Origin: Pocillopora damicornis
Lineage: Eukaryota
Length of the DNA: 64,000 nt
Assembly: GCF_003704095.1 (NCBI RefSeq)
Contig: NW_020843601.1
Coordinates: 62,001-126,000 of the forward strand
Reading direction: 5' to 3'
This document shows, piece by piece, positions 18,001 through 21,000 of the stretch (position 1 is the stretch's first letter; the number at the start of each line of letters is the position of its first letter). Made by a program: the position numbers.

Positions 18001-21000
18001 CTGACTGACTGACTGATCGACTGACGATCCGATTGAGTGGCTGATTTACCATCTGACTCTCCGACAGAAAAACAGAGCGGTAGATACACACTCTGACGTG
18101 CTGAAAAAGTGGCTTATATCTCCCACATCCCTGTTTTCCTCTCTGTCTGTCTGTCTGACTGACTGACTGAACACATTGGCTAAAACCTTCTGGCAATAAG
18201 TAACTAGTTTTCACCTGCTTCAAGCGTTGTAACTGTGATATTTTTTGACTCTCCATAACCAACGATGTTTCTTGCTTGTAAAATGACTATGTATGTTCTG
18301 TTTTGCCTCAGATGTTTGAGGTGGAGTGAGGTTTCTTTAATTGCGTTCTGTCGCCTCACCATACTTCCATTTGCATGCAGTAATGTTATCATAAAGTCCA
18401 GTATGACACTGCCTCCATTTTTAATCGATTTTTTCCACGTGACGTTGAATTCCAACACGTTCCGCGAAATTTTATGTACCACAGGAGGGCCAGGTGGATC
18501 TGAAATATTGCACAGGTTAACAGTGTTTCATTCAATCGTTCATACCATGGTGAGCAAGATTTAACTCAGACCCGAACATGCTTTTAGGACCCTTGCTAAA
18601 ATTACTTCTCAGTTTTATTAAATGCTTTTTTCAAAGGGCAAGAGGGAATAAATTTTAATTATCGTTTCAGCAACACTGTTACAGTGTTGAAAAATATTAG
18701 TTTTTTATCCGTTATTATTAGAGCTTAAGCTTTATCTTAACAGGCAAGAAAAGCAGTTTTAAGGACATTGATCTTTGGGTATTGAGTTTGAAAAACACAA
18801 CTTTAGTAACTTTGTTATCTTTGGGCATCCATTTTTGTCAAAAGTCTGAGAATTTGAAGAGTTTCCGGACCCGTGAGCTATATCACCTGAAAAAAGACGA
18901 TTTCAGTGCCACTGAGTTACGTTTTATCTGAATATACCTCCAAAAACACGATCAGGGTTTTTAGTAAATACTGCAAAAGCGCACGGAATAGAAAACATCA
19001 AAATGGAGTTGCAGTTACTTTGTACTTACAAAGTTGTTCCACCGTGATGTTATACCACGCAGGTCCTTTGCTGTTAGATGCATTACACGTGTACAAACCG
19101 AAGTCGCCCACAGTTTTCGGTGTCAGTGTCAACGTGCTACCGTCATGCGTCGAATGCACTCCGTTCAAGATCTGTCGGCCATTTTTAAACCACGTAAATT
19201 TCGCCGCAGGATTGGCATAAAATACACAATGTAGGGTTGTATTGTGATTGAGCCATGATTTTATAAAAGGACTTGTTGAAGCTGTTTTGTTGATGTGAGG
19301 TCTATCTGCATATTGGTAAAGAGAGGAACTTTCAAAGATACCATCGAAAGGAAACTATGTTGGGTTTTATTTTGAGGCAATGAGTACAGGTAATTAGCTT
19401 ATGGTAAGTCTAAATGAATCCTGACCATACAGGTATGATTGCTATTTAATTCTTGTAAGCTAGTAAGGGTGTTTTTTTTGTGTCGTTCATAAATGTCAAC
19501 AAGTTTAAGCAAACCCCTTATCTAAAAAATATGTAAACTTTACATGTAAACGTTGGCTTAAGTTGACATCCTGGATATTTATTATTATTCATACATCGAT
19601 AAAAAGTGTTAAAGAAAATAACTCTAGTAAAAATTGCATTCAAGCGAAACACTCAGGCAATAAAGAAAAGAGTTCCCCTTCGAGAGGTGTCCTTCAGTGA
19701 AGGCTAAAGTTATTGGAGCATTGTCCTTTGAACATGATGGAGGTGTCCACTGAAGGAGATACAACCCTCTAAGAAGACACCACAGTAACTGAAACTGAAT
19801 AACGAAGGAAATCAATTTTAAACAACAGAGATCTTCATTTACTTACATCGTATAACTCGCATTTTAACTCGATGAAAATCAGATCCAACTTGGTTTGTTG
19901 CATTGCAGGTGTAGGTGCCAGCATCTTTAAGTTGAACATTAGGAATCTGTAAAACTGTACTTGTATTTCCACGCTTTAATACTTTACCATTGTTTTTCCA
20001 TGTGATGGAGAGAGGTGGATCACCTGTTGCGTCACACTCCAAGTTGACCCTCTCCCCATCTTCCACATCGACTGTCGCGTTTGGTTTTGTAATTATTTTT
20101 GGTGGAACTGATGAGGAATTTAAGGGTATAACATATTAGTTTAAATAACTGATAAATCCACCAGCGTTCTATCACAAAAAAAGCTGCAATCCGATTTGCT
20201 ACACTGCTCGCCACTATTCCACGATAGGTAATGCATGAAGTGATTGACATAAGCCCGTCTCGTTGTTGAATTTGAACGACAGGTAAATTACAACCAAAAG
20301 GTGATCAACACCCATTCAAAAACGAGAGATGAAAATTCACAAATAATGGCTTGCAGACTGAGGTGCAAGTGTTGGTTTGACGTTATTTCACTCCCTCAAT
20401 GATTAACTTTCGACAAAAGTGGTCAGACATCTATAAAGAGGGAGGGGGAGCTCAAACATAGCAGCTCGTAGGGACATACCAGCTCTATTGACATTTCTTA
20501 TTTAAAGATTTGTTGAAGTTTGATTTTCAAACATTCAGATCCTTTGCTTTTGGTTTCAAGGACAGTTGAGAATCATTCAATTACAAGAACCAAAATGTCT
20601 AGTTAAAAATTAAGTCAGTTTACTTACCCCGAATGAGGAGTTTTACTAAGGCACTCGTCACAGTAGTACCATCCATAATCACCTTGCAAGCATAATCAAT
20701 TTCGTCTGATTTGCCCACATTTCGTAAAGTAAACAGTTGTACACTTCCGTTTTGATTGAAATTTCCACTCCAATGAAGCCTGGAGGTAATGGATGAGGGA
20801 ACTTGTGTGTTCGCCGCCCAAGTTCTTGGCGGTGTAACTGTTATGAATTTGTCCTCAAAGTTACCGTAATTATCTACCTTTCCCCAAATGACCACCATCT
20901 TCAAGTGACCCACTTTACCATAAGTAAAATCCCAGCGAAAAGTGACGTTAGAGCCCAAACTTGCCAATAATGAGGATTGAGGTCCCTTCGTAAACGACGC

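Follow-up and report, generated by a model that had tools for sequence, protein, structure and literature searches.

The DNA analyzed here, referred to as the window, is a stretch of 64,000 nucleotides (nt) from the coral Pocillopora damicornis (NCBI RefSeq assembly GCF_003704095.1, contig NW_020843601.1, positions 62,001 to 126,000 of the forward strand). Two receptor tyrosine kinase (RTK) genes, called RTK-A and RTK-B, lie in tandem on its minus strand and follow a common plan, consisting of a first immunoglobulin (Ig) domain of the variable type (V-type Ig1), two I-set Ig domains, three FN3 domains, a transmembrane segment, and a tyrosine kinase. In Ig1 of both receptors, and in one exon of a third gene (gene C), the canonical cysteine (Cys) of strand B is replaced by tryptophan (Trp). 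Ig1 is probably a V domain free of the core disulfide, which acts as the polymorphic recognition module of these tandem RTKs. Each exon would encode a membrane-distal V-set Ig domain with an invariant Trp in place of the B-strand Cys. Judged from its position and its variability, Ig1 would serve as the distal recognition surface, with a diversity kept by balancing or diversifying selection. Engagement of a partner by Ig1 would then lead to receptor clustering and to activation of the kinase.

Sequence signature and predicted fold of the Trp-type domains

All three Ig1-type exons are minus-strand exons flanked by AG and GT, and their phase is 1-1, which is usual for Ig-domain exons. They occupy 20628..20999 in RTK-A (372 nt, with 123 in-frame codons at 20629-20997), 52019..52405 in RTK-B (387 nt), and 3208..3624 in gene C (417 nt, including a long F-G hairpin). 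An earlier note on this DNA had given these coordinates and the strand, together with the motifs of strands B and F, and the exon translations bear all of them out. The canonical V-set motif of strand B is G-x-x-V-T-L-x-C. It reads GSNVTFRW in RTK-A, GSDVTFHW in RTK-B, and GSDVTLEW in gene C, and the shared reading of the three domains is G-S-x-V-T-x-x-W. The codon of the Trp, TGG, is found at 20932-20934 in RTK-A, 52326-52328 in RTK-B, and 3530-3532 in gene C. Strand F reads DEIDYAC in RTK-A, DQITYGC in RTK-B, and DAQSYKL in gene C. The F-strand Cys is present in both RTKs (TGC at 20686-20688 in RTK-A), with Leu at this place in gene C, and the Trp of strand C is present in all three domains (codon 20884-20886 in RTK-A). 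The alignment of the three domains agrees with the same note that the C-strand Trp is kept and that gene C has lost the F-strand Cys.

In this alignment the identity to RTK-A is 25-39%, and 16 columns are invariant. Among them are the A'-B turn Gly, the two Trp, the salt-bridge pair of Arg and Asp, the Phe of strand E, and the Tyr corner. In RTK-A numbering, G15, R73, F89, D98, and Y102 correspond to the V-set hallmarks Gly16, Arg75-Asp98, hydrophobic 89, and Tyr102. They are invariant in the 3 window domains, and near-invariant in a 51-row family alignment and in 55 database domains of the same family. The B-strand Trp is itself invariant in the 51 sequences and in 55/55 of the database domains, and therefore does not stand at this position by chance. 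Since Trp replaces the B-strand Cys, with which it is aligned by profiles, the B-F disulfide cannot form, as had been claimed. Also as claimed, Ig2 and Ig3 of both RTKs retain C...W...C in their translations, and they are matched by Pfam I-set and Ig_3 with E values from 1e-13 to 1e-20.

Two other cysteines, absent from the earlier note, were observed in these domains. RTK-B Ig1 contains an extra Cys that opens strand E and is conserved in 12/12 cluster members; it may be free, bonded to the F-strand Cys, or engaged between chains. In gene C, a lone Cys stands two residues past the Trp (EWSC). The possibility that the latter is a shifted canonical Cys was rejected, since the G-x-x-V-T-L-x register sets the Trp at the canonical place and strand F offers no Cys partner.

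The extent of the family was examined with a profile of the three window domains, which was searched against 1.84 billion representative proteins and returned 191 matches at E<=1e-3, 150 of them listed. For the tabulation of residues, 152 stored proteins (given below under handles such as P0053 where needed) and the 3 window domains were re-aligned to the profile. This gave 239 domain matches in 135 proteins, with Trp at the B position in 58, Cys in 73, and the position uncovered in 108. The 58 Trp-type domains comprise 55 database domains (in 54 proteins) and the 3 window domains. Trp-type domains scored at least 37.2 bits, with the second domain of P0053 (14.9 bits) as the sole exception, and Cys-type domains scored at most 28.8 bits. 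According to this separation, the Trp-type domains are a separate family and not scattered variants.

Of the 55 database domains, 36 carry Cys at the F position, 9 carry Ile, 3 Leu, and 2 Ser; Phe, Met, and Val occur there once each, and 2 domains have a gap. At the C-strand position, 40 carry Trp, 12 Phe, 2 Leu, and 1 Ala. The hallmark Arg is found in 53 (Lys in 2), the Asp in all 53 that are aligned there, and the Tyr in 52 (Phe in 1). All except one of the 55 are N-terminal and start within the first 67 residues of the protein. Members of the family include other RTKs, secreted V-plus-I-set proteins, and short V-only predictions, and in the database the name 'Fibroblast growth factor receptor' is given to some proteins of the wider family. 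P0053 (489 residues) is the only member seen with two tandem Trp-type V domains, which are followed by an Ig domain, a transmembrane segment, and the start of a kinase. Most members are unnamed. Among the matches listed, the named Trp-type members belong to Pocillopora, Stylophora, Orbicella, Oculina, Desmophyllum, Montipora, and the sea anemone Actinia tenebrosa, and no hydrozoan is found among them. A profile search had been suggested in the earlier note as a check, and its outcome, at least 55 Trp-type database domains of which the named ones listed are all hexacoral, sustains the observation made on the window. Judged from these sequences, the Trp-type V domains appear to form a subfamily whose named members in this analysis are all hexacoral, from stony corals and a sea anemone.

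Structure prediction, the other check that had been suggested, placed the Trp in strand B of a V fold. The AlphaFold2 model of RTK-A Ig1, built on the 51-row alignment, has a pLDDT (predicted local distance difference test) of 92.5 and a pTM (predicted template modeling score) of 0.86. In this model, residues 2-4 form strand A, 9-12 A', 18-24 B, 34-41 C, 47-55 C', 59-62 C'', 74-78 D, 85-91 E, 101-108 F, and 111-122 G, and a short helix lies between C'' and D at residues 68-71. Trp22 lies in B, Trp38 in C, and Tyr102 and Cys104 in F. The gene C domain (pLDDT 89.9, pTM 0.83, 53 rows) was modeled with the same strand order and with its long F-G hairpin. In Foldseek searches of the PDB, the matches listed for the RTK-A model were all V domains or V-containing chains, such as antibody VL, CAR D1 (TMq 0.75), and P0 (0.73). 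The gene C model also matched V domains, with P0, Nav beta2, CRIg, and the V domain of PD-L1 as top matches. TCR V gamma was likewise among the matches of the two models.

Profile comparisons with solved structures gave a similar picture. The 3-row profile of the window domains matched only V-set domains, namely JAML (3e-5), followed by B7-H3, Nav beta2/beta4, P0, TIM, and PD-L1, and its alignment set the Trp opposite the canonical B-strand Cys of B7-H3. With the 51-row profile, JAML was matched at 5.6e-13 and CAR D1 over the whole domain at about 1e-6, and 200 PDB sequences were found at E<=1e-3; weak CEACAM profile matches were also present. Look-alikes in the ESM Atlas belonged to general V-set clusters only (Nectin-2, 0.97). 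The Ig1 domains are predicted by these models to adopt a V fold with C' and C'' strands. Their core would be held by the Trp of strand B, the Trp of strand C, a hydrophobic residue of strand E, and a free Cys or an aliphatic residue on strand F.

Variability of Ig1 and its possible causes

The hypervariability of Ig1 was not a part of the earlier note. When the database protein P0001 (1157 residues) is compared with the RTK-A exons, the identity is 91-100%, but only 62% in Ig1 and 83% in the signal peptide. Variable columns were counted in two sets of proteins. The RTK-A set consists of the 9 full-length proteins among the 15 listed members of a 28-member 90% cluster, with named P. damicornis and P. 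verrucosa proteins included. The RTK-B set consists of 12/12 members of the cluster with the named P. damicornis and P. verrucosa proteins. In Ig1, 50/130 columns are variable in RTK-A and 52/129 in RTK-B. The corresponding counts for RTK-A and RTK-B are 10/89 and 4/90 in Ig2, 8/91 and 5/91 in Ig3, 12/235 and 11/244 in the stalk, transmembrane, and juxtamembrane part, and 6/295 and 7/305 in the kinase and tail. In the three successive FN3 domains, they are 10/94, 10/97, and 16/105 for RTK-A, and 7/95, 1/94, and 4/114 for RTK-B. Compared with the other ectodomain domains, Ig1 is enriched in variable columns in both receptors (Fisher test, p=1.5e-11 for RTK-A and p=1.8e-23 for RTK-B). Pairwise identity in the RTK-A set goes down to 67% in Ig1 and is at least 96% in the rest. 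For RTK-B, 21/484 columns are variable in the other ectodomain and 18/549 in the intracellular part. All Ig1 variants are open reading frames (ORFs). It was also observed that the RTK-A ectodomain outside Ig1 (16706-20135) has 54/476 variable columns, compared to 18/530 in the intracellular part (p=1e-6), and that this is much less so in RTK-B.

Ig1 of RTK-A in the window is the same as that of P. damicornis XP_027045258.1 in 123/123 columns, and Ig1 of RTK-B is identical to that of P. damicornis XP_027045158.1. At least 4 Ig1 lineages can be distinguished for RTK-A, the window type and others that are 84%, 67%, and 66% identical to it. In P. verrucosa, the two versions XP_058941013.1 and XP_058941013.2 (P0155 and P0154) are 69% identical in Ig1 and 97.8% identical in the rest. 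Two versions of one record with different Ig1 types suggest that these may be alleles of one locus.

On the structural model, the variable sites are distributed unevenly over the domain. In RTK-A, 31/61 positions from BC to C'' and from F to G are variable, compared to 15/62 elsewhere (p=0.003). The same split in RTK-B gives 30/60 and 17/62 (p=0.015). The sheet to which these parts belong (GFCC'C'') is the usual partner-binding sheet of V domains. In both RTK sets, nine positions of the core are invariant, among them the two Trp and the F-strand Cys. The N-glycosylation sequons also differ among Ig1 types. The window type has NVT in strand B; other RTK-A types, seen among the relatives P0001, P0154, P0156, and P0163, have DVT at this place, and their BC loop gains an NST sequon through an insertion of N-S.

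Amino-acid polymorphism within the Pocillopora cluster was then set against divergence from Stylophora. For RTK-B, 11 Pocillopora-cluster proteins were compared with 3 Stylophora-cluster proteins, after removal of P0229, which models the same P. damicornis gene a second time, and of the fragment P0242 (150 residues); for RTK-A, 9 proteins were compared with a single Stylophora protein. In Ig1 of RTK-B, 51 sites vary among the Pocillopora-cluster proteins and 3 are fixed against Stylophora, compared to 37 variable and 116 fixed in the rest of the protein. In RTK-A, the numbers are 46 variable and 12 fixed for Ig1, and 72 variable and 133 fixed for the rest. The contrast between Ig1 and the rest is strong in both receptors (Fisher test, p=1e-20 for RTK-B and p=2e-9 for RTK-A). 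Outside Ig1, the Pocillopora-cluster protein P0238 shares 98.6% identity with P. damicornis RTK-B, and its Ig1 is 70% identical to that of P. damicornis and 80% identical to that of Stylophora. The divergence of Ig1 within the genus equals that between the genera, and this argues for a pattern of old, maintained lineages, and not of relaxed constraint or simple fast evolution.

As to what Ig1 recognizes, sensing of microbes and allorecognition are about equally plausible. It is possible, as a tentative explanation, that Ig1 recognizes a non-self ligand of a pathogen or symbiont (Symbiodiniaceae or bacteria, for example), or a fast-evolving endogenous ligand, and that its diversity arose from host-microbe conflict. 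This would accord with the variation centered on loops, including the gain and loss of N-glycosylation sequons, which is typical of immune receptors, and with the many V-first proteins that the family has come to include by expansion in hexacorals. Allorecognition draws on the same variability data, however, which do not discriminate at present between the two.

Allorecognition is also no more than tentatively put forward. The tandem V-RTKs would be allorecognition receptors, in which Ig1 binds a matching Ig1 of a touching colony in trans as Alr1 and Alr2 do, and the kinase reports 'self'. Hypervariability confined to the distal V domain, the large excess of within-genus variation over between-genus divergence, a variable face that coincides with the usual V-V contact sheet, and the location of the genes in a tandem cluster are all consistent with this function. 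Also in favor are the precise allorecognition of pocilloporid corals (PMC12018476) and the polymorphic and trans-binding Alr2 (PMC8282982), and a precedent is provided by the polymorphic Ig-bearing RTK of the sponge Geodia (PMC11926128). On the other hand, the allele lineages are few, with about four Ig1 types for RTK-A, and members of the family also occur as secreted V-Ig proteins. It is a rather doubtful, more specific proposal that the V-RTK pair is a coral histocompatibility locus or a part of one, with Ig1 lineages as old as the split of Pocillopora and Stylophora, self-binding in trans across colony contacts, and a 'self' signal transmitted via the kinase.

The Ig1 types could further be produced by chimeric transcripts, by differences between gene models, or by paralogous loci homogenized outside Ig1 through gene conversion. 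The proteins come mostly from unnamed assemblies, only 15/28 members of the RTK-A cluster were listed, and the window holds one copy of each RTK, so that further copies could lie outside it. Nevertheless, the same Ig1 types recur in independent records, and some RTK-A types (P0156-P0161 and the P0003 cluster) do so as exon-length genomic ORFs on as many as 30 contigs. Different Ig1 types are also present in named RefSeq proteins of two species, and RTK-A and RTK-B display the same pattern independently. Each RTK has a single Ig1 exon and there is no spare Ig1 exon elsewhere in the window, so that, as far as the window extends, the Ig1 types do not arise from mutually exclusive exons. An artefact of this kind is thus improbable. 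It is less probable still, and indeed scarcely credible, that Ig1 is degenerating under relaxed constraint with the change of Cys to Trp as a part of the decay, since the lost disulfide, the Pfam scores below threshold, and the high sequence turnover are outweighed by a Trp and eight other core positions that are invariant across the variants and nearly so across 55 family members, by the open frames of all variants, the confident fold models, and the spatial bias of the variation, and by a between-genus divergence that relaxed constraint would have raised as much as the within-genus variation, the opposite of what is seen.

Several points count against the explanation of Ig1 as a disulfide-free, polymorphic recognition module. 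The Pfam V-set model (PF07686) has a gathering score of 26 bits, which neither RTK-A (16.4) nor gene C (21.3) reaches, and RTK-B has no match at E<=0.1. Burial of the Trp side chain is deduced from its strand position and from alignments of predicted models. The variability was measured on protein sequences only, without a synonymous-site control, and mostly on unnamed transcript or contig predictions, in which several Pocillopora species may be mixed. Alleles, fixed species differences, and paralogs homogenized outside Ig1 are not fully separable in these data. The Ig1 of P0238 groups with that of Stylophora with a bootstrap of 100, but in an unrooted tree, and this split is equally compatible with a deep Pocillopora allele. 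Gene C, which lies beside a truncated duplicate and is without a named or spliced relative in the searches, may not be a functional gene.

Receptor genes, gene C, and other features of the window

The gene structures were obtained with Pfam on single exons and with tblastn of database proteins against the window, exon by exon; the N runs at 10393-10739 and 42877-42994 were left as they are. RTK-A extends over about 9066..21701 on the minus strand and encodes a signal peptide, Ig1, Ig2, Ig3, three FN3 domains, a transmembrane segment, a juxtamembrane part, and the kinase. Upstream of Ig1 is the signal-peptide exon (21615-21701). It is followed beyond Ig1 by the exons of Ig2 (19842-20108), Ig3 (19031-19303), the three FN3 domains (18216-18497, 17474-17764, and 16727-17038), and the transmembrane segment (15608-15742), and the juxtamembrane and kinase exons run down to 9066, with the first N run between exon matches. 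RTK-B has the same architecture at about 42025..53057, also on the minus strand, with its signal peptide at 52986-53057 and the second N run inside its span.

The kinase of both RTKs is matched by Pfam PK_Tyr_Ser-Thr. The motifs VAIK, HRD, and DFG are intact in the exon translations, and with these motifs the kinase looks active. The nearest solved kinases were sought with P0153, the named P. damicornis protein whose Ig1 equals that of RTK-A in the window, and were FGFR1 (4e-86) and RET (about 3e-80). The kinase was the single stretch of P0153 matched among solved structures, and no part of the ectodomain matched a solved FGFR ectodomain.

Pfam assigned no family to 23 further window ORFs outside the RTK exons, and the regions 21.7-42 kb and 53-64 kb are without a gene recognizable by Pfam. 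A profile scan of 1210 six-frame window ORFs (at least 30 amino acids) found no further Trp-type V exon, except a partial duplicate at 3704-3811, and gave weak cross-matches to both Ig2 exons. The G+C content of the window is about 37%. An imperfect TGGA/ATGG microsatellite flanks the N run in an RTK-A intron, at 9844-10392 (about 137 copies) and 10740-10840 (about 25 copies), and it accounts for the G-rich skew at 10-12 kb and for the long repetitive ORFs there.

The close relatives of the gene C V exon are unspliced ORF-type predictions only, none of them named (159-member cluster, 40 read, 15 listed). Variability of this exon amounts to 17/138 columns among the 15 listed cluster members, P0005, and the window. 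At 3700..3864 on the minus strand, a partial duplicate in tandem repeats the 5' end of the exon together with the sequence upstream of it, and the ORF 3704-3811 mentioned above is the profile match to this duplicate. The duplicate is open for the first 36 residues, up to the Trp, and then contains a stop. The direct repeats 3526-3646/3700-3820 (88%) and 3642-3692/3814-3864 (92%) mark a duplication of about 172-174 nt just upstream of the exon. A candidate second exon of gene C is found at 1090..1286 on the minus strand, where a short stalk leads into about 24 hydrophobic residues, with basic stop-transfer residues and then a stop behind them. It has no Pfam match, and its acceptor AG at 1287-1288 is compatible in phase with the end of the V exon. 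With this hydrophobic ORF and the compatible acceptor, it is possible that gene C encodes a V-stalk-transmembrane protein. In the family tree, the gene C clade branches first and the RTK domains are in the crown (support values were not considered).

Comparison with known V-set domains and receptors

The coral domains share with canonical V-set domains (CAR D1, JAML, P0, Nav beta2/beta4, PD-L1, B7-H3; PF07686) the predicted V fold with C' and C'' strands, at Foldseek TM values of about 0.6-0.75. The A'-B Gly, the C-strand Trp, the Arg-Asp pair, the hydrophobic E residue, and the Tyr corner are common to both as well, as is the F-strand Cys in the RTKs. They differ in the invariant Trp for the B-strand Cys, in the absence of the B-F disulfide, and in the short helix between C'' and D. 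V-type domains without a B-F disulfide are also present in domain 1 of CD2, CD58, SLAM-family proteins, and the N domains of CEACAM, where the GFCC'C'' sheet is used for homophilic or heterophilic adhesion. They belong to unrelated lineages, which are not known to have a conserved Trp at the B position as a hallmark. Trp for Cys would be one route to a V domain without the core disulfide. With respect to the kinase, the nearest solved relatives are FGFR and RET, RET being nearly as good a match as FGFR1. The FGFR ectodomain consists of two or three I-set Ig domains and no FN3; the coral RTKs differ from it in their Trp-type V first domain and in the three FN3 domains of their ectodomain.

Among cnidarians, the closest comparison is with the Alr proteins of Hydractinia. 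According to Huene et al. 2022 (PMC9546547), Alr domain 1 has a V-set fold with a salt bridge that is mostly kept, and all its sequences are without both Cys. Trp, Phe, or Tyr stands there in place of the B-strand Cys, and hydrophobic residues take the places of the F-strand Cys and the C-strand Trp, this Trp being retained in only two sequences; a helix between C'' and D is found in 17/29 models, and the tails carry immunoreceptor tyrosine-based activation or inhibition motifs (ITAM/ITIM). The paper also states that its authors are aware of no non-bilaterian V-set Ig domain besides Alr. Another study describes Alr2 as a highly polymorphic protein that binds like sequences in trans (PMC8282982). 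The earlier note had given a W-W-C core for Alr domain 1. This is not upheld by PMC9546547, in which domain 1 is without both Cys and mostly without the C-strand Trp, and of such a core only an aromatic residue at the B position is common to the two.

The coral and Alr domains are alike in being membrane-distal, V-set-like first domains of cnidarian proteins without the canonical disulfide, with an aromatic B residue and the salt bridge kept. The architecture of V, I-set, FN3-like, and transmembrane parts, the clustering of the genes, and the highly variable first domain are also shared. They differ in that Alr domain 1 lacks the F-strand Cys and mostly the C-strand Trp, both of which are present in the coral RTKs. 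In addition, Alr proteins are hydrozoan with ITAM/ITIM tails, and the coral RTKs carry a kinase and belong to a family seen only in hexacorals. Direct homology of the Trp-type domain to Alr domain 1 could be proposed from the aromatic B residue and the Arg-Asp pair, the hypervariable first domain, the C''-D helix (68-71 in RTK-A), and the similar architecture. It is quite unlikely in view of the F-strand Cys and C-strand Trp that the coral domains keep, the kinase as compared to ITAM/ITIM tails, and the absence of hydrozoans among the named Trp-type matches. The family would be a second, independent-looking cnidarian V-set lineage, in hexacorals, and closer to the canonical V-set signature than Alr.

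Outside the cnidarians, the RTK of the sponge Geodia cydonium (Pancer et al. 1996, as cited in PMC11926128) has Ig-like domains that are polymorphic among individuals, and a role in self/non-self recognition was proposed for it; its N-terminal domain contains the canonical Cys-Cys-Trp triad. The coral receptors resemble it as non-bilaterian RTKs with an N-terminal V-like Ig domain and polymorphism of ectodomain Ig on a conserved kinase, the coral polymorphism being that of database sequences and not of proven alleles. They differ from it in the Trp at the B position, compared to the canonical triad, and in having three Ig and three FN3 domains, compared to two Ig. Sponge SAML (PDB 8OVQ, 8ovq_A) displayed insignificant similarity to the three-domain profile (E=0.89).

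A literature search that left subscription-only papers and supplements outside its range, and that also made use of accessions and locus tags, found no paper on these genes and none on a coral receptor kinase with hypervariable Ig. According to a 2025 review (PMC12018476), allorecognition in pocilloporid corals is precise, the genetic background of Stylophora is 'not yet fully characterized', and the molecular means by which reef corals tell self from non-self have yet to be settled. The distal V domain of the RTK pair diverges by about 30% between copies that share 97-99% identity elsewhere, which makes the pair a concrete candidate, open to testing, for allorecognition in corals or for the sensing of symbionts and pathogens. 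If V-RTKs do act in histocompatibility, their receptor logic would be unlike that of the ITAM/ITIM-tailed Alr proteins, and closer to the earlier proposal made for the sponge RTK.

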